Virus record (IMG/VR): IMGVR_UViG_3300010283_000096
Location: 1 to 5,455 of that record
Length of the DNA stretch: 5,455 bases
Reading direction: 5' to 3' (one strand)
Source of the DNA: a virus
Taxonomy: Duplodnaviria > Heunggongvirae > Uroviricota > Caudoviricetes
Below are positions 1 through 5,455 of the stretch, in pieces. Below the pieces are notes generated by a model. The model was not told the origin of the DNA. It saw nothing but the letters and a program-made list of their open reading frames with translations, and did no database searches. The translations under genes were made by a program, and so were the position numbers. Numbering within the stretch: position 1 is the first letter of the stretch; each line of letters starts with the position of its first letter.

Positions 1-81
1 CAGGCGTGGTACATGGATATGATGTGCGAAGCGCGTGGCGCGGCGGATCTGTATACGCAATCGGCTTTGCAAAGGGGATGA
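1..81 (+). CDS. 3' end of an upstream gene (partial, N-terminus outside window); product not identifiable
   Basis: Frame 1 is open from base 1 to a TGA at 79-81 (translation ...QAWYMDMMCEARGAADLYTQSALQRG*). The other two + frames are not consistent with a gene ending here. The next gene starts 3 nt downstream in a coupled arrangement. No recognisable motif in the 26 visible residues. Confidence 0.4.
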   Translation, partial: QAWYMDMMCEARGAADLYTQSALQRG

Positions 82-84
82 GCA

Positions 85-426
85 ATGAGGGGGATTATTT
101 TTCTGTTAGCTGTCTTTTCTGCGTGCAGCGCGTGGGCGGATGGCTTCACGGTTAAATGCGGTGGCTACACTATGGTTGCAAACCAGGGCGAGTTATCGAC
201 AATCAACGGTGAAAGAGTTACCTCTCAAAAAATCACCGAACTGGGTACCAATGGTTTGAAAGTAGACATGGGGCTTATGCCAGCCAAAGACGGTAACAAC
301 TACGGCTTTGAATACATTCGTCGCCCTGGTACCGAAACGCGATTCCTGAATGTGCAACTGCTGCAGAACAGCATGGATGCGCCGAAAATCATCGGTTCCT
401 TTCCATGCAAAAAGATTGTTGATTAA
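85..426 (+). CDS. Small secreted protein or putative lipoprotein (113 aa), unknown function
   Basis: ATG at 85 is preceded by a Shine-Dalgarno-like AAGGGGA (72-78). The N-terminus MRGIIFLLAVFSACSAWADG is a typical signal peptide (positive residue, hydrophobic core). It has two possible processing sites: an AXA signal peptidase I site (AWA|DG) and a weak lipobox-like FSAC. The mature part is hydrophilic with no further hydrophobic helix. GC is similar to the tail genes (about 60% in a sampled block). Confidence 0.7.
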   Translation: MRGIIFLLAVFSACSAWADGFTVKCGGYTMVANQGELSTINGERVTSQKITELGTNGLKVDMGLMPAKDGNNYGFEYIRRPGTETRFLNVQLLQNSMDAPKIIGSFPCKKIVD

Positions 427-443
427 TCACTCGTAATTATAAT
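416..443 (+). promoter_or_regulatory. Putative sigma70-type promoter for the 480..719 gene (-35 TTGTTG 416-421, 16-nt spacer, -10 TATAAT 438-443)
   Basis: A perfect TATAAT hexamer at 438-443 with a TTGTTG -35-like hexamer 16 nt upstream, overlapping the stop codon of the preceding gene. The predicted transcription start near 450 leaves a ~30 nt leader containing AAGGA (464-468) before the ATG at 480. Sequence-only prediction. Confidence 0.35.
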
Positions 444-479
444 GTGATACTTCTACTTTCACGATAAGGAATTTGTCGC

Positions 480-719
480 ATGTTCGGATTTGATAAATTA
501 ATAACTCCAAAAATCATCAACGTTCTGTATGGCATCACAATGTTACTTCTGGTTGTTGCCGCCATTATAACGTTTGTTAATGGGAAGGCTGCTGGCGCTT
601 TAGTGCTTTTGTTATGTGCTGTATTTTGCCGAATATTCTTTGAGTGCATCATGGTTTCATTTAAAAACAATGAGTATCTTCGCCGAATAGCTGAAGCGTT
701 AGAAGCAAACAAGCAGTAA
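480..719 (+). CDS. Small two-helix inner-membrane protein (79 aa), DUF4282-like; moron-type accessory gene
   Basis: Two hydrophobic helices (INVLYGITMLLLVVAAIITFV and ALVLLLCAVFCRIFFECIMVSF) are followed by a charged C-terminal tail (KNNEYLRRIAEALEANKQ). The N-terminal FDKLITPKIINVLYGI matches my recollection of the DUF4282 small membrane protein family (from memory, not searched). GC is lower than neighbours (about 32% in a sampled block). The gene is flanked by a promoter-like signal and a strong terminator. Confidence 0.65.
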   Translation: MFGFDKLITPKIINVLYGITMLLLVVAAIITFVNGKAAGALVLLLCAVFCRIFFECIMVSFKNNEYLRRIAEALEANKQ

Positions 720-735
720 TGAAACTTCAATAATG

Positions 736-759
736 AACCCGCCACCCGGCGGGTTTTTT
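736..759 (+). terminator. Rho-independent terminator (stem CCCGCC/GGCGGG, loop ACCC, followed by TTTTTT)
   Basis: CCCGCC (738-743) pairs perfectly with GGCGGG (748-753) around a 4-nt loop, extended by two A-T pairs, and is followed immediately by a six-T run (754-759). It lies 17 nt after the stop codon of the 480..719 gene. Confidence 0.8.
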
Positions 760-778
760 GCTTTCTGGAGCCTACCAA

Positions 779-1531
779 ATGGCAGTATCTGACCAGACCC
801 GCAGCGGCGACCTTGCCGAAACATTCAAATCTGAACGGGAAACAACAAAGAATCAGATCCGTGTCGCCTTGCCTGGCATTATTCAGTCATTCGATCCTGA
901 TGCGGTGACGGCGGTTGTGCAGCCTGCTATCCGTTCGGTTGAAAAGGATAATGACGGCAACCGCATTACCAAAAATTACCCGTTGCTGGTGGATGTGCCA
1001 GTGGTATTCCCGCGCGGCGGAGGATGCACGCTAACGTTCCCGGTTAAAGCCGGTGATGAATGTTTGGTGATTTTTGCCGATCGTTGTATTGATTTCTGGT
1101 GGCAGAGCGGCGGGATACAGGAGCCGGTTGATGACAGAATGCATGATTTATCGGATGCGTTTTGTATTGTCGGTCCCCAGTCGCAGGCGAGGAAGATTAG
1201 CGGTATTAATACCAGTGCCACACAGTTGCGTAGTGACGACGGCAGCACCTATTTTGAGCTTAATCCTGATACCAGGAAAATTAAAATTGTCGCTCCGGGG
1301 GGGCTTGATGTGGTTGCCCCCCTGGCTGATTTTTCTGAGAAAGTAACCATTCATGGCCTGTTAACCTGGATGGGTGGCATGGTGGGGTCTGTTGTTTCTG
1401 GTGTGGCTTCAAAAATCACTGGTGCTGTTGAGTTCTTGGGGAGCGTGAAGGCTAACGGCAAGCCAATCGATGATACGCACACTCATGGTGGTGTTCAGCG
1501 CGGTGGAAGCAATACCGACGGAGTAAACTGA
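779..1531 (+). CDS. Baseplate central spike/hub protein, gpV-like (P2 gpV / phi92 gp138 class), about 250 aa
   Basis: The N-terminal half (RVALPGIIQSFDPD...VDVPVVFPRGGGCTLTFPVKAGDECLVIFADRCIDFWWQSG) has the character of the gpV/gp5 OB-fold domain. The C-terminus carries a Gly-rich stretch and a His-x-His apex motif (DDTHTHGGVQRGGSNTDG), comparable to the P2 gpV C-terminus as I recall it. The ATG at 779 with GGAG (765-768) about 10 nt upstream is preferred over the TTG at 758 given by the ORF track, which sits inside the terminator T-run. The stop overlaps the next start (TGATG). Confidence 0.8.
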   Translation: MAVSDQTRSGDLAETFKSERETTKNQIRVALPGIIQSFDPDAVTAVVQPAIRSVEKDNDGNRITKNYPLLVDVPVVFPRGGGCTLTFPVKAGDECLVIFADRCIDFWWQSGGIQEPVDDRMHDLSDAFCIVGPQSQARKISGINTSATQLRSDDGSTYFELNPDTRKIKIVAPGGLDVVAPLADFSEKVTIHGLLTWMGGMVGSVVSGVASKITGAVEFLGSVKANGKPIDDTHTHGGVQRGGSNTDGVN

Positions 1532-1884
1532 TGCGATACAGACGTGAAGACGCCGATGGCGATTACACCTTTGGCAGCGGTGATGACACCTGGCTGATTA
1601 ACTCACCGGAGGCCGTGGCACAGGCGGTAAAAACGCGATTCGAATTGTGGTATGGGCAATGGTTTCTCGACACCACCGAGGGGACTCCGTGGATCCAGTC
1701 CGTACTCGGTAAGCAGAAGCCGGAAACCTACAACCTGGCGATCCGTAAGCGCATCCTCGAAACGCGGGGCGTTAAATCAATCCTCTCTTTCAATACGACG
1801 GTGGATACCACGACCCGACGTGTCAGGTTTTCCGCTGAAATCGACACTCTTTATGGAATAACGACTGTTACATCGGAGGCGTAA
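1531..1884 (+). CDS. Small baseplate-associated protein (117 aa), positional equivalent of P2 gpW / Mu gp46 / gp25-like wedge subunit; family not confirmed
   Basis: Coding is well supported: GGAG lies 8 nt upstream, and both ends are coupled by overlapping stop/start codons (TGATG at 1529-1533, TAATG at 1882-1886). The size and position between a gpV-like and a Baseplate J gene are typical of gp25/W-like proteins. I do not recognise canonical GPW motifs in the sequence, so the functional call is positional. Confidence 0.6.
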   Translation: MRYRREDADGDYTFGSGDDTWLINSPEAVAQAVKTRFELWYGQWFLDTTEGTPWIQSVLGKQKPETYNLAIRKRILETRGVKSILSFNTTVDTTTRRVRFSAEIDTLYGITTVTSEA

Positions 1885-3083
1885 TGACTCTGAACCTTGA
1901 TTCTCTCGGTTTATCTGCAAAGGTAACCGCGGAGGGGATCAGTGCGCCTGATTATCAGACGATACTCAGCACCCTGATTAGCTATTTTCAGCAGATTTAT
2001 GGTAGTGATGCCTACCTCGAACCGGACAGTAAAGACGGTCAGATGGTGGCTCTGATGGCGCTGGCGATTCATGATGCCAATAATACGGCGATAACTGTCT
2101 ACAACTGTTTTTCACCGGCAACCGGCTATGGGGCTGCACTGACCAGTAACGTGAAAATAAATGGTATTTCACGTAAAGGCGCGACGAACTCTACGGTTGA
2201 TTTGCTTCTTACAGGAACTGCCGGAACAACCATCATTAATGGCAGCGTGAAAGACAGTAATAATGTGATATGGCGTTTGCCTGCTTCAGTGGTGGTCGGC
2301 GTGGATGGTACAGTGATGGTGACCGCAAAATGTTCCGTCAGTGGTGCAGTGGCGGCGCTGGCTGGAACTATCACTGAAATTAATACGCCAACCCGTGGCT
2401 GGGTTTCGGTAACCAATCCTGCTGCAGCTACTGTAGGCACTCCGGCAGAAACTGATGCGGAGTTACGTATCCGCCAGTCGCAAAGTGTTGCGTTGCCATC
2501 AATAACCCCATTTGAAGCACTGGATGGTGCTGTTTCTAATGTTACCGGGGTAACCCGCCACAAACTCTATGAAAACGATACTGGTTCGGAGGATGGTAAC
2601 GGGTTACCGCCACACTCTGTTGCTGTAATTGTGGATGGCGGTGATGTGACGGATATTGCTCAGGCTATCAGAGGGAATAAAGGCCAGGGGACAGCCACTC
2701 ACGGTACAACATCCGTTACGGTTCCGGATAAATACGGCAATCCCCATGTAATCAAATTCTCGCGTTCCAGTGATGTGCCTGTTTATGCCCGGATTAAATT
2801 AAAAGTTTTTACGGGTTATACCTCACAGATAGGGCAGCAGATCCAGCAGGCTATTTCCGACTATATCAATAGTCTGATGATTGGTGATTCGGTCCTTTTA
2901 AGTCGCATTTACTCACCGGCGAATCTTGGCGTGGTGAGTGGCGGAAATGCACGCTATTACGATATTCAGGAACTGACGATTGGTAAATCCCCGGGGGCTT
3001 TGTCGTCATCAAACATTGATATCAGATATAACGAATCTGCGTCCTGTGCCCCGGAAAATATCGTTATAACGGTGGAGTCATGA
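1884..3083 (+). CDS. Baseplate wedge protein, Baseplate J family (P2 gpJ / Mu gp47 / T4 gp6-like), 399 aa
   Basis: Size, position after the gpV-like and small baseplate genes, and overall sequence character match Baseplate J-family proteins. The start is coupled to the upstream gene (GGAGG 1876-1880, TAATG overlap) and the 3' end overlaps the next gene (ATGA at 3080-3083). E. coli e14 jayE is a remembered analogue. Confidence 0.8.
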   Translation: MTLNLDSLGLSAKVTAEGISAPDYQTILSTLISYFQQIYGSDAYLEPDSKDGQMVALMALAIHDANNTAITVYNCFSPATGYGAALTSNVKINGISRKGATNSTVDLLLTGTAGTTIINGSVKDSNNVIWRLPASVVVGVDGTVMVTAKCSVSGAVAALAGTITEINTPTRGWVSVTNPAAATVGTPAETDAELRIRQSQSVALPSITPFEALDGAVSNVTGVTRHKLYENDTGSEDGNGLPPHSVAVIVDGGDVTDIAQAIRGNKGQGTATHGTTSVTVPDKYGNPHVIKFSRSSDVPVYARIKLKVFTGYTSQIGQQIQQAISDYINSLMIGDSVLLSRIYSPANLGVVSGGNARYYDIQELTIGKSPGALSSSNIDIRYNESASCAPENIVITVES

Positions 3084-3760
3084 GCAAATACACCGAACTA
3101 ATCACGAACTATCACGCCACCAAACCTAAATTTCTTGCACATGCTGATCTGATGACCAGGCCGCTTATTGATGTTGCGGCTGCCACCAGAGGGCTGATTA
3201 CTGCATTTGATATTGACTCTGCGGTTGGTGTGCAACTTGACATTCTGGGATTGTGGATCGGACGTAGCCGTGTTGTCAGCCAGCCTATCTCAGGTGTCTA
3301 TTTCAGCTGGGATACCGACGGGCTTGGATATGATCAAGGTGTATGGCAGGGGCCATACGATCCTGATTCCGGATACATGTACCTCAGCGATGAAACTTAT
3401 CGTGTCATCCTTAAAGCGAAGATTGCGATTAATAACTGGGACGGACGGAATGATTCGCTTCCAGCAATTCTTGACGCTGCAACAGCAGGATCAGGGCTGC
3501 GAATGCAGATAGTCGATAACCAGGACATGACGATATCGGTCTGGGTCTTTCCTGATACTGATATTTCAGATGTATCGCGTGAGTTAATTGCGGCAATTAA
3601 ACAGGGGTATCTAACAGTAAAAGCCGCCGGGGTATGGGCGGGGGGCATTGAAACACCTTCGGTGGAAACTCCATCGGAAGGCTCTAAATTTTTTGGTTTT
3701 GATATGGATAACGAATTCATCAGTTGTTTTGATGTAGGGGCATGGGGAGTATTACTCTGA
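3080..3760 (+). CDS. Baseplate wedge / tail-fiber attachment protein, gpI-like (P2 gpI / Mu gp48 position; possibly DUF2313/YmfQ-like), 226 aa
   Basis: The ORF overlaps the Baseplate J gene by 4 nt (ATGA) and sits immediately upstream of the tail fiber gene. This is the conserved position of gpI-type proteins that follow Baseplate J in P2/Mu-type baseplates. Family membership is inferred from synteny and size, not from a recognised motif. Confidence 0.65.
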
Positions 3761-4464
3761 TGGCGAAAAATGACTTTAAAGCGTTTGCAACTGATCGAAA
3801 TGCCAATGTTATGTCGCAGGAGGAATGGGAAGCGTTGCCTGCGCTTATATCCGGATTTACAGCAGGGAAAGCATCCAGTGCGCAAGTCAATAAGGTTATT
3901 CGGCAGGCCAGCTTTATTGCTGCAGCTCTGGCCCAGTTTGTAAGTGATAAAACGCAACGGGATGTGCTTGATAATGGTGATCTGCCCGGTTTTGTTGAAT
4001 TGCTGGGATCGGGGTTTGCTGTTGAATACCTGAGCCGCAAGAATCCGTTTGGCGATATCAAATCGGATGGCACGGTGAAAACGGCTCTCGAAAACCTTGG
4101 TTTGGGAGAAGCGGCAAAACGGAATGTGGGGACAGGGGAAAATCAGATCCCCGATATGAGTTCTTTCGCTTCGTTGAGCGGTGAATCGGGTTACCAGCGT
4201 CTCCCAAGTGGGAGGCTTATTGTCTGGGGACGTGCGATGGTTTCCTCATCTTCAAATACGATTACGCTTATTGCTTCTTTTGACAATACAAATTATCGCG
4301 TTATTGTATCCGATACCGGATCTGGCTGTATTCCGTACGGTGCATCACCGTTAAGTGGTTCGACATTCAAACTGACCAGAGCTGGTCGTTCCTATAATAG
4401 CGATGGAACGTTACAAACAATCTCTGGTCCATCTGCTGTTAATTACATCGCAATAGGTAATTAA
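3760..4464 (+). CDS. Short tail fiber / receptor-binding protein (about 235 aa)
   Basis: It is immediately followed by a Tfa-type chaperone gene and preceded by baseplate wedge genes. The C-terminal half is Ser/Gly/Thr/Asn-rich ([42 protein letters not shown]...), typical of fiber distal domains. The ATG at 3760 (GGGGAG at 3744-3749, 10 nt upstream; overlaps the upstream stop as TGATG) is preferred over the in-frame ATG at 3742, which lies inside the previous gene. Confidence 0.75.
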
Positions 4465-4465
4465 T

Positions 4466-4867
4466 ATGTTTTATTCTAAGAGTGCCAACGGTTTTTTCGA
4501 TTCTTTATCTGCTCTTCCCGATGATTCATTAGAAATATCCGATGAGAAATATGCTGAAATGATCGAGGGTATCGAGGCAGGAAAAGTTTTATCTTCAGAC
4601 CATGAAGGCTATCCAGTTTTATCAGATCTTAAGTTGACAAAGGAACAGCAAATCAGTGAGGTAATGATTGTTAAAAATGGCAAAATTGCAGATGCTATGT
4701 CAGAAATTAGCGTATGGCAAACAGAGTTACAATTGGGGATCATAAGCGATAACGACAAAGTCAGTCTGATAAACTGGCTTTTGTACATTAAAGAACTGCA
4801 AGCCGTTGACACTTCAACGTCTCCTGACGTTATATGGCCTATGCCTCCGATAGTTCAGGACAGATGA
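4466..4867 (+). CDS. Tail fiber assembly chaperone, Tfa family (lambda Tfa / P2 gpG / Mu gpU class), 133 aa
   Basis: The C-terminal motif SLINWLLYIKELQAVDTSTSPDVIWPMPP closely resembles the conserved Tfa C-terminus (lambda Tfa ends ...[29 protein letters not shown] as I recall it). The gene starts 1 nt after the fiber stop codon. Its GC (about 37% in a sampled block) is lower than the baseplate genes, consistent with a swappable host-range cassette. Confidence 0.85.
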   Translation: MFYSKSANGFFDSLSALPDDSLEISDEKYAEMIEGIEAGKVLSSDHEGYPVLSDLKLTKEQQISEVMIVKNGKIADAMSEISVWQTELQLGIISDNDKVSLINWLLYIKELQAVDTSTSPDVIWPMPPIVQDR

Positions 4868-4873
4868 TATCCG

Positions 4874-4905
4874 ATGCACTGGAACAATAGATACATCCAG
4901 TGCAT
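4874..4905. repeat. Perfect 10-bp inverted repeat (ATGCACTGGA / TCCAGTGCAT) with a 12-nt spacer, between convergent genes; possible terminator hairpin or protein-binding palindrome
   Basis: Arm 1 (4874-4883, ATGCACTGGA) and arm 2 (4896-4905, TCCAGTGCAT) are exact reverse complements. The repeat lies 7 nt after the Tfa stop and about 45 nt from the stop of the convergent minus-strand gene. There is no clean T-run on either side, so it is not a canonical intrinsic terminator. Confidence 0.5.
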
Positions 4906-4948
4906 ATAATATTAACTGTTCAGTAATTAATACAGATAATCTTTAACT

Positions 4949-5455
4949 TTAAATATGTGCGTACATTTTTATTTTTTTGTAAATTGGTATGGTGATATAA
5001 TATGAAGCCATAAAGCAAATCGCGGTAAGCATTATTACCTGGATTCCATTCGCTGGCGCTAGTTTTATACCAAACAAACTACCTGCTTCGGTAATTAATA
5101 ACTTTATTGTTTGTTCTGTGCCACATAGAACTAGCGTATTTCTACCTAATTCATAAAAAGGTTTAAATACAAGTAATCGAGACACAAAAATAGACGAGAT
5201 AATTAATGAGAATGTTATAGTAATATTAATCACAGATAATATATATTTGTTGCTTGAAATAGCATAAATATCCTTAACCCCAAACATATATAGATATGAT
5301 GAAACCAAAACACTAATTGTGATTGCTAGTAAAAATCCAACACCATTCATTATAAATGACTTGGAACTTTGCAGGATATAACTAGATAAAAATTTTCCTA
5401 ATGAATAATACAGGAGATATACAAGGGCGCTGTCAACGTTAAAAAAATAAGCAGG
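4949..5455 (-). CDS. AT-rich gene for a polytopic integral membrane protein (C-terminal 169 codons visible; N-terminus beyond the window edge), unknown function
   Basis: The minus-strand ORF stops at 4949-4951. Its reading frame remains open upstream of the ATG at 5350 through to the window end at 5455 (no stop codon when I translate 5351-5455 in frame), so the gene most likely starts outside the window. The protein is very hydrophobic with at least three predicted helices (GFLLAITISVLVSSYLYMF, ILSVINITITFSLIISSIFV, IQVIMLTAICFMASYYITIPIY) and is rich in I/L/F/Y/K/N. Local GC is about 25%, against about 55% in the tail genes. Confidence 0.65.
   Translation of the reverse strand, partial: PAYFFNVDSALVYLLYYSLGKFLSSYILQSSKSFIMNGVGFLLAITISVLVSSYLYMFGVKDIYAISSNKYILSVINITITFSLIISSIFVSRLLVFKPFYELGRNTLVLCGTEQTIKLLITEAGSLFGIKLAPANGIQVIMLTAICFMASYYITIPIYKKIKMYAHI

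Follow-up and report, generated by a model that had tools for sequence, protein, structure and literature searches.

A small exported protein is encoded directly behind the baseplate hub gene in a stretch of viral DNA of 5,455 nucleotides (nt) (IMG/VR record IMGVR_UViG_3300010283_000096, positions 1 to 5,455; hereafter the window). From sequence comparison, we find that the open reading frame (ORF) at positions 85-426 is a real, constrained prophage gene, and propose that its product would be released to the periplasm, and that the gene and the last codons of the hub gene seem to form an exchangeable cassette with ancient alleles. For the function of the protein, our tentative proposal is periplasmic superinfection exclusion against other phages.

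The ORF begins with ATG at position 85, ends with TAA at 424-426 and encodes 113 amino acids (aa). The protein matches the profile phrog_3443 along its full length (E = 1.4e-47; residues 2-112 aligned with positions 2-114 of a 115-position profile), and 396 homologues were found at E<=1e-3. The identical protein occurs on 785 contigs, most of them from E. coli, where it is labelled 'hypothetical' or 'secreted protein', and the gene matches 177 of 5,426 complete E. coli genomes (megablast, about 80% or more nucleotide identity). A relative at the same genomic position is named 'STY1065/STY2022 family phage-derived protein' by NCBI. We derived hallmarks of the family in this analysis, namely the signal peptide, two invariant cysteines, the motifs INGExVTSQK and FLNVQLLQ and the position next to the hub gene, and the window protein possesses all of them. 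Because the profile is matched, homologues are numerous and the C-terminal half is constrained (nonsynonymous divergence (dN) of 0.01-0.04 against synonymous divergence (dS) of 0.3-2), the ORF is a genuine gene. The family is narrow, phage-borne and common in prophages of E. coli, Salmonella and Klebsiella; a deep profile search among 1.84 billion representatives gave 41 clusters at 50% identity. Apparently strong scores were also obtained for giant adhesin- or fibre-like repeat proteins (P0124, P0142, P0145, P0158 and P0160), as the sums of 4-19 weak stretches. They look like compositional or repeat artefacts and were rejected as homologues.

The stop codon of the hub gene (TGA at 79-81, after SALQRG) is followed by a 3-nt spacer, GCA, and then by the ATG. 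Stop and start do not overlap in the ATGA at 85-88. The start codon is placed from -4 to +3 nt relative to the hub stop in 58 of 60 related loci. The first-pass annotation of this DNA had described the gene as translationally coupled to the upstream gene: the tight spacing is indeed conserved, but in the window the two genes are 3 nt apart and do not overlap. In Salmonella phage SEN34, the homologous frame begins at 15497, 3 nt past the hub stop (gene 20; NC_028699.1, 15497-15838), and the deposited start of SEN34_20 is 15605, which drops the signal peptide and the first strands. The annotation of the 'putative exported protein' of ST340-VIM1phi10.1 is truncated in the same way.

The N-terminus reads MRGIIFLLAVFSACSAWA followed by DG, and has the layout of a signal peptide, with MR as the n-region, GIIFLLAVFSA as the h-region and CSAWA as the c-region before the aspartate. 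Residues 16-18 are A-W-A, and a lipobox-like F-S-A-C ends in Cys14 (codon 124-126). The mature part has 95 residues and contains no further hydrophobic segments. The first-pass annotation had noted the A-W-A, the F-S-A-C and a hydrophilic mature part, all of which are present, and had left the choice between signal peptidase I and signal peptidase II ambiguous. Among 115 non-redundant homologues of full length, Ala is always found at -1 (115/115), and position -3 has Ala in 112 and Val in 3. In contrast, Cys14 is found in just 7 of the 115; the signal peptide sequence is otherwise variable. Furthermore, all six allele types described below keep a small-x-small site (AWA, AMA, VSA, AFA, ASA and AFA). 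Because A-x-A is near-invariant while the lipobox cysteine is rare, the family members are predicted to be cleaved by signal peptidase I and released to the periplasm, and the signal peptide of the window protein is most likely removed by this enzyme after A-W-A. Thus, the ambiguity is largely settled in favour of signal peptidase I.

A cysteine 4-5 residues ahead of the cleavage site occurs in three allele groups (FSAC at 14, LFSC at 16 and MSSC at 15), which make up 26 of 171 unique sequences; the lipobox Cys is absent from the other 145. The FSAC of the window protein fits the PROSITE residue classes for lipoproteins, yet its Cys is at position 14 and Phe is at -3. Because a lipobox-like Cys recurs, and because relatives have lipoproteins in the same slot or a lipoprotein fused to the domain, we give lipidation of the window allele itself a minor but appreciable chance. 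It has also to be considered whether the protein is an outer-membrane lipoprotein, processed by signal peptidase II between F-S-A and C14, which blocks a receptor or an outer-membrane channel from the periplasm like Cor or Llp. This idea draws on the same three observations, namely the fit to the PROSITE classes, the recurrent Cys before the A-X-A and the true lipoproteins in the slot or fused to the domain. However, the A-X-A is universal and most unique sequences lack the Cys, and a Cys at position 14 gives a shorter signal peptide than is usual for lipoproteins. Cor (phi80 and N15) and Llp (T5) resemble the window protein as phage envelope proteins encoded beside tail genes, and the window allele has a borderline lipobox. 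They differ in that most family members do not have the lipobox Cys, in that there is no homology, and in that the window gene is linked to the hub gene and not to a receptor-binding protein. Tail fibres, with 38 clusters in 59 loci, are hypervariable, and no association between allele type and tail-fibre type was found in these loci. Thus, the Cor/Llp-type receptor blocker of the first-pass annotation finds no backing in sequence relation or in fibre linkage, and we regard a lipoprotein of this kind as very unlikely.

The upstream gene, which was to be checked for an endolysin, is the baseplate hub gene of the tail according to the annotation of relatives: the counterparts in YP3, SEN34 and E. 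coli are annotated as hub, and the full-length E. coli relative matches Pfam E217_GP41. The next backbone gene downstream encodes the baseplate spike. A placement of the exported-protein gene between hub and spike, with the ATG within a few bases of the hub stop, was found in SEN34, YP3, Mulock, vB_EcoM-683R1, GZ7, ST340-VIM1phi10.1 and E. coli prophages, for homologues with identities down to 27%. The distant members P0144 and P0147 and the lipoprotein fusion P0146 possess this same placement. In species-representative genomes, hub and spike both adjoin the gene at 17 of 21 loci, and one of them does so at the remaining 4; these 21 loci are from Enterobacterales, save one record titled Chryseobacterium sp. 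In IMG/VR, we used 71 loci that have a spike with 89% or higher identity to the window spike. The family is present in 60 of them, and in the other 11 a different exported protein occupies the exact same slot: a 241-aa lipoprotein in 7 loci and a 154-aa signal-peptide protein in 4. Because all family-less loci bear another exported protein there, the hub-adjacent slot appears to require an exported protein in the SEN34-like lineage. The reading of the gene as a free moron is not supported: it is sporadically replaced, and a terminator lies downstream of the hub-spike island, but no promoter-like site precedes it and its position next to the hub gene is fixed family-wide. The variable morons are the genes downstream of it.

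The 241-aa lipoprotein (MSRLAITTIVFSLFLTSC followed by SWD; loci L015, L016, L036, L038, L049, L067, L075 (3210-3935)) and the 154-aa protein (MNRRNILLFLGLFIPLSGIAA followed by PGKYEK; loci L020, L050, L062, L083) belong to no known family. P0146 (L009, 6001-6879), encoded directly 3' of a hub gene, is a 292-aa lipoprotein. Because it has the lipobox LSGC and a C-terminal barrel domain, P0146 is a membrane-tethered form of the family. In two TARA marine contigs (L098, 371-709; L099, 234-572), a family member is encoded between the plug gene (Pam3 gp18-like) and the presumed hub gene. Since these members sit between plug and hub, the association of the family with the baseplate core is old and the exact slot is not fixed. 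P0157 (L012, 6001-6357), a homologue of 25% identity, has both cysteines and is found in the non-phage chromosomal order opp-cls-yciY-[gene]-yciI-tonB-yciA-yciB-yciC-ompW-trpA, at the place of kch in E. coli K-12. It could be a domesticated or ancestral copy. ST64B was considered as a relative with the slot and rejected: its tail is of the Mu type and has no such slot.

Such a conserved position in the middle of a baseplate cluster would also be expected of a structural or assembly component of the virion, whose hydrophobic N-terminus would then not be a signal peptide. However, the N-terminus has the canonical n-h-c organization with a conserved cleavage site, paired invariant cysteines typify oxidizing compartments, and the gene is missing from 11 of 71 close relatives that bear the same hub and spike. 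Moreover, the ORF that separates hub gp41 from spike gp43 in Pseudomonas phage E217 (gp42; L013, 7595-8128) is absent from the 19 proteins built into the cryo-electron microscopy structure of the virion (PMC10329688), which speaks against a virion role for the window protein. Thus, we consider a virion component extremely unlikely. E217 gp42 itself was rejected as a homologue, having neither a signal peptide nor similarity to the family. Having a non-structural gene where the hub and spike genes meet may be a more general trait of this tail type.

Six allele types were distinguished among the 60 IMG/VR genes. In the mature protein, the N-terminal half (positions 139-267) is hypervariable, with dN of 0.33-0.70 between alleles and saturated dS. 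In contrast, the C-terminal half (268-411) is near-invariant, with a dN/dS of about 0.02. Across allele types, the flanking hub proteins are 90-98% identical and the spike proteins 98-99% identical. Because divergent N-terminal halves sit in near-identical hub and spike flanks, the alleles appear to be far older than their surroundings and to have been moved by recombination. The last approximately 10 residues of the hub protein, past EARGAADL (52-78), match the allele type strictly 1:1. The left border of the cassette is therefore inside the hub gene, and on the right it is bounded by a conserved terminator, 20-40 nt ahead of the start of the spike gene. These observations suggest that the exported-protein gene and the last approximately 10 hub codons form an exchangeable cassette with at least six ancient alleles. 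In Pseudescherichia vulneris NBRC 102420 (L107, 15-2849), four family members are arranged in tandem (629-1003, 1274-1594 (truncated), 1889-2242 and 2496-2849), and each copy is preceded by a 65-97-codon 3' fragment of a hub gene with a distinct C-terminal tail.

We modelled the mature protein with AlphaFold2, using a 33-sequence alignment that included distant members. The model (predicted local distance difference test score, 92.3; predicted template modelling score, 0.81) is an up-and-down beta-barrel, in which DSSP gives seven long strands and we read eight. Down to 25% identity, only Cys25 (157-159), Cys108 (406-408) and Leu88 are invariant. Because the invariant Cys pair sits on the first and last strands of the model, a Cys25-Cys108 disulfide probably closes the barrel in the periplasm. 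Fold matches were generic, the best being avidin-family and other ligand-binding barrels. No homology of the mature protein to characterized families was found in Pfam, NCBIfam, PADLOC and the sequences of the Protein Data Bank, and known-family searches with distant family members were likewise empty. Profiles of the Cor, Llp, Imm and Sie families and of known defence proteins (Pfam, NCBIfam and PADLOC) gave zero matches.

The fold matches raise the idea that the protein is a host-fitness cargo, an avidin- or lipocalin-like barrel which binds a small molecule or a host envelope component and has no role in conflicts between phages. The housekeeping neighbourhood of P0157 (cls-yciY-[gene]-yciI-tonB) agrees with this idea, and the conserved C-terminal half suggests a single conserved partner. 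However, avidins share only 6-13% sequence identity with the mature protein and no motif, and the strict linkage to the hub over large distances, the replacement in the slot and the polymorphism of the cassette would not be expected for a metabolic cargo. We therefore judge a ligand-binding cargo unlikely. A small periplasmic beta-barrel with a predicted disulfide could also be an inhibitor of peptidoglycan hydrolases in the manner of PliC/MliC, Ivy or T4 Spackle, which neutralizes a tail-borne lytic transglycosylase or lysozyme and guards late-infected cells from lysis-from-without or superinfection. The tape-measure proteins of several relatives do contain an SLT domain. On the other hand, there is no Pfam match to inhibitor families, and no SLT match was obtained for the tape measure of the closest E. 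coli relative, a prophage that still keeps the gene. Comparison with PliC/MliC gave 6-9% identity and no PF09864 match; many unrelated barrels score higher, and the inhibitor loop motifs were not identified. Hydrolase inhibition is in our view rather improbable.

The region between the exported-protein gene and the terminator is variable. Its genes form 17 clusters, which reassort with allele type. For example, the type A allele is followed by the DUF4282 gene in 10 loci and by an unrelated pair of genes for 257-aa and 131-aa proteins in 12. Because one allele type pairs with different cargo, the DUF4282 protein is interchangeable cargo and not a dedicated partner, and the envelope-acting accessory pair suggested in the first-pass annotation dissolves. 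The DUF4282 gene has a G+C content of about 39-41%, a perfect TATAAT ahead of it and its own AAGGAA ribosome-binding site, and the strong terminator (735-756) follows it. It looks like a classical moron and fits the definition better than the exported-protein gene. The 257-aa and 131-aa module is the commonest cargo (30 loci; for example, L014, 2663-3980). It is cytoplasmic-looking, has no Pfam match and could be a defence or toxin-antitoxin-like pair. Further cargo includes a DUF2335 membrane protein, a HEAGH-motif protein and a second small signal-peptide protein (cluster 13; beginning MKRLALLSLVFMSYSVLA). Whatever the cargo, the terminator is kept just ahead of the spike gene, where the hub-spike island ends on its right side.

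A consensus scan found no promoter for the exported-protein gene within the hub gene. The gene thus looks like a late, lytic gene, read from the late tail operon and coupled to the hub gene. This tight coupling to a late structural gene and the lack of a detectable promoter of its own would suit an envelope accessory of the lytic cycle, made late with the tail proteins and involved in outer-membrane disruption, release or the timing of lysis. Other myoviruses, such as P2, carry lysis genes within late operons. However, SEN34 already has a canonical lysis cassette with a holin, an endolysin and an Rz-like spanin at another location, and the window protein has neither a C-terminal membrane segment nor spanin features. 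In addition, the family is absent from 11 of the 71 close relatives, and a four-copy array is hard to explain by such a role, so that we hold a lytic accessory to be of low probability. A lysis cassette or spanin in the strict sense was ruled out: the upstream gene encodes the hub, cargo and spike genes lie downstream, there is no C-terminal hydrophobic segment, and the SEN34 cassette is elsewhere. The earlier view that the protein is not Rz1 or another spanin was thus confirmed.

We return to superinfection exclusion. An exported-protein slot, ancient alleles in near-identical backbones, a barrel of which one half is variable, the linkage to the hub tail and the stacking of copies together point to this reading, which we hold at somewhat less than an even chance. 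A moron-type island closed by a conserved terminator also agrees with it. The exported barrel would work in the periplasm and protect against other phages in a type-specific manner. It might meet the incoming contractile tail tip (hub, spike or tape-measure exit) after penetration of the outer membrane and block delivery of the incoming genome. The conserved half would be a common scaffold or contact, whereas the recognition of particular incoming variants would depend on the variable half. Periplasmic exclusion proteins with a signal peptide exist, namely P1 Sim and T4 Spackle, and Ltp of TP-J34 is a lipoprotein aimed at the tape measure.

T4 Spackle (with Imm) and P1 Sim are, like the exported barrel, small phage proteins with a cleavable signal peptide that work in the periplasm, and the genes of T4 Sp and Imm lie beside one another, one of them encoding a small two-transmembrane protein, as does the DUF4282 gene in the window. 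However, Spackle is helical whereas the window protein is predicted to be an all-beta barrel. Moreover, neither Spackle nor Sim has sequence similarity to the window protein (Pfam and PADLOC), the window gene is seemingly in a late operon and not early or lysogenic, and its membrane-protein neighbour is interchangeable. The gene architecture resembles the orphan C-terminal-fragment and immunity cassettes of contact-dependent inhibition (CDI), Rhs and type VI secretion systems (T6SS): the swappable unit is the variable 3' end of a structural gene and a small gene (here exported), and the tandem four-unit array carries hub fragments. The likeness is one of gene architecture only. A hub tail of approximately 10 residues cannot be a toxin domain.

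A more specific form of the exclusion proposal can be drawn. The hub tail of approximately 10 residues and the N-terminal half of the barrel, both variable, may recognize each other as a cognate pair: the barrel would bind the hub tail of an incoming phage of its own cassette type once the spike has been shed in the periplasm, and would thereby plug genome delivery. This would make the hub-spike island a polymorphic kin-exclusion locus, whose cassettes are swapped and occasionally stacked like CDI, Rhs and T6SS orphan modules, and the other exported proteins of the slot would be analogous binders. We consider this specific mechanism improbable as it stands.

Several points weigh against superinfection exclusion. 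The linkage between hub tail and allele could be mere physical adjacency, and the variability of the N-terminal half could be relaxed constraint instead of diversifying selection, dS being saturated. The tandem array is a single one among 102 loci, and P0157, a distant homologue, stands among housekeeping genes of a chromosome. For a prophage to exclude other phages, the gene must be expressed in the lysogen, and such expression is unsupported because there is no promoter-like site upstream of the gene. Neither sequence likeness nor specific structural likeness to any characterized exclusion protein was found. The papers searched contained nothing relevant on the family (STY1065, STY2022 and WP_001214054), and experiments on it are absent from the literature searched.

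The features of the window are listed in Table 1. The window holds the baseplate and tail-fibre module of a temperate, SEN34-like (Brunovirus-type) myovirus prophage. E. coli prophages and the phages SEN34 (Salmonella) and YP3 (Yersinia) are its nearest annotated relatives. SEN34 is temperate, with myovirus morphology and a lambda-like regulatory region (PMC5261728). Its genome also encodes a Q-type antiterminator. No RNA families were found in an Rfam scan of the window. Bases 1-4160 have many megablast matches at approximately 97-98% in the 5,426 complete E. coli genomes. In contrast, 4200-5455 (the C-terminus of the fibre, the fibre assembly protein and the membrane protein) have zero matches there. 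Thus, this prophage has a rare variant of the receptor-binding end. The minus-strand ORF at 4949-5455 is multi-transmembrane, with a G+C content of 27-30%, and gave no match in Pfam, PHROG and NCBIfam. Because it is 32% identical to the acyltransferase of Shigella phage SfII and takes the same position as the O-acetyltransferase of SEN34, it is probably an O-antigen-modifying gene of lysogenic conversion.

Table 1. Features of the window, with positions counted from its first nucleotide
Feature	Position	Strand	Basis
Baseplate hub gene, 3' end (E217 gp41-like / Mu gp44-like)	1..81	+	translation ending QAWYMDMMCEARGAADLYTQSALQRG, then stop
Shine-Dalgarno-like AAAGGGGA for the exported-protein gene, within the final hub codons	71..78	+	read from sequence
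113-aa exported-protein gene, phrog_3443	85..426	+	ORF, profile match, homologues
Signal peptide, 18 aa; predicted signal peptidase I cleavage after A16-W17-A18	85..138	+	column counts, lipobox survey
Mature 95-aa domain	139..423	+	AlphaFold model m56d50001afe7
Weak sigma-70-like promoter candidate for cargo (TTGTTG, 16 nt, TATAAT at 438-443)	416..443	+	read by eye; under the threshold of the consensus scanner
DUF4282 cargo gene, 79 aa, two transmembrane segments	480..719	+	Pfam PF14110, E=1.2e-10; phrog_12129
Intrinsic terminator, 9-bp G+C-rich stem and T-run	735..766	+	z = -2.96; conserved in >55 loci
Baseplate spike (Gp138-type N-domain and apex motif), conserved backbone gene	779..1531	+	Pfam PF18352, PF18946; annotation in relatives
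Sheath-initiator/gpW-like gene	1531-1884		
Baseplate J-like gene	1884-3083		
DUF2612 wedge gene	3080-3760		
Tail fibre	3760-4464		
Fibre assembly protein	4466-4867		
AT-rich membrane protein, running past the window end	4949 to beyond 5455	minus	

The protein itself is already in databases, as 'hypothetical', as 'secreted protein', as phrog_3443 and as the STY1065/STY2022 family. Undescribed in the literature searched are the presence of an exported protein after the hub as a rule, the division of the barrel into a hypervariable and an invariant half, and the architecture of the hub-end cassette with its four-copy array. If the protein is an ordinary accessory protein, a widespread 'hypothetical protein' can now be annotated as a periplasmic barrel processed by signal peptidase I. 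If it is an exclusion factor, it would represent a new, structurally distinct family of periplasmic anti-phage proteins, and the hub-spike junction would be a dedicated recombining slot for envelope-acting specificity genes. Such a slot, if true, would bear on the prediction of phage host range and on the use of phage-therapy cocktails against lysogens.

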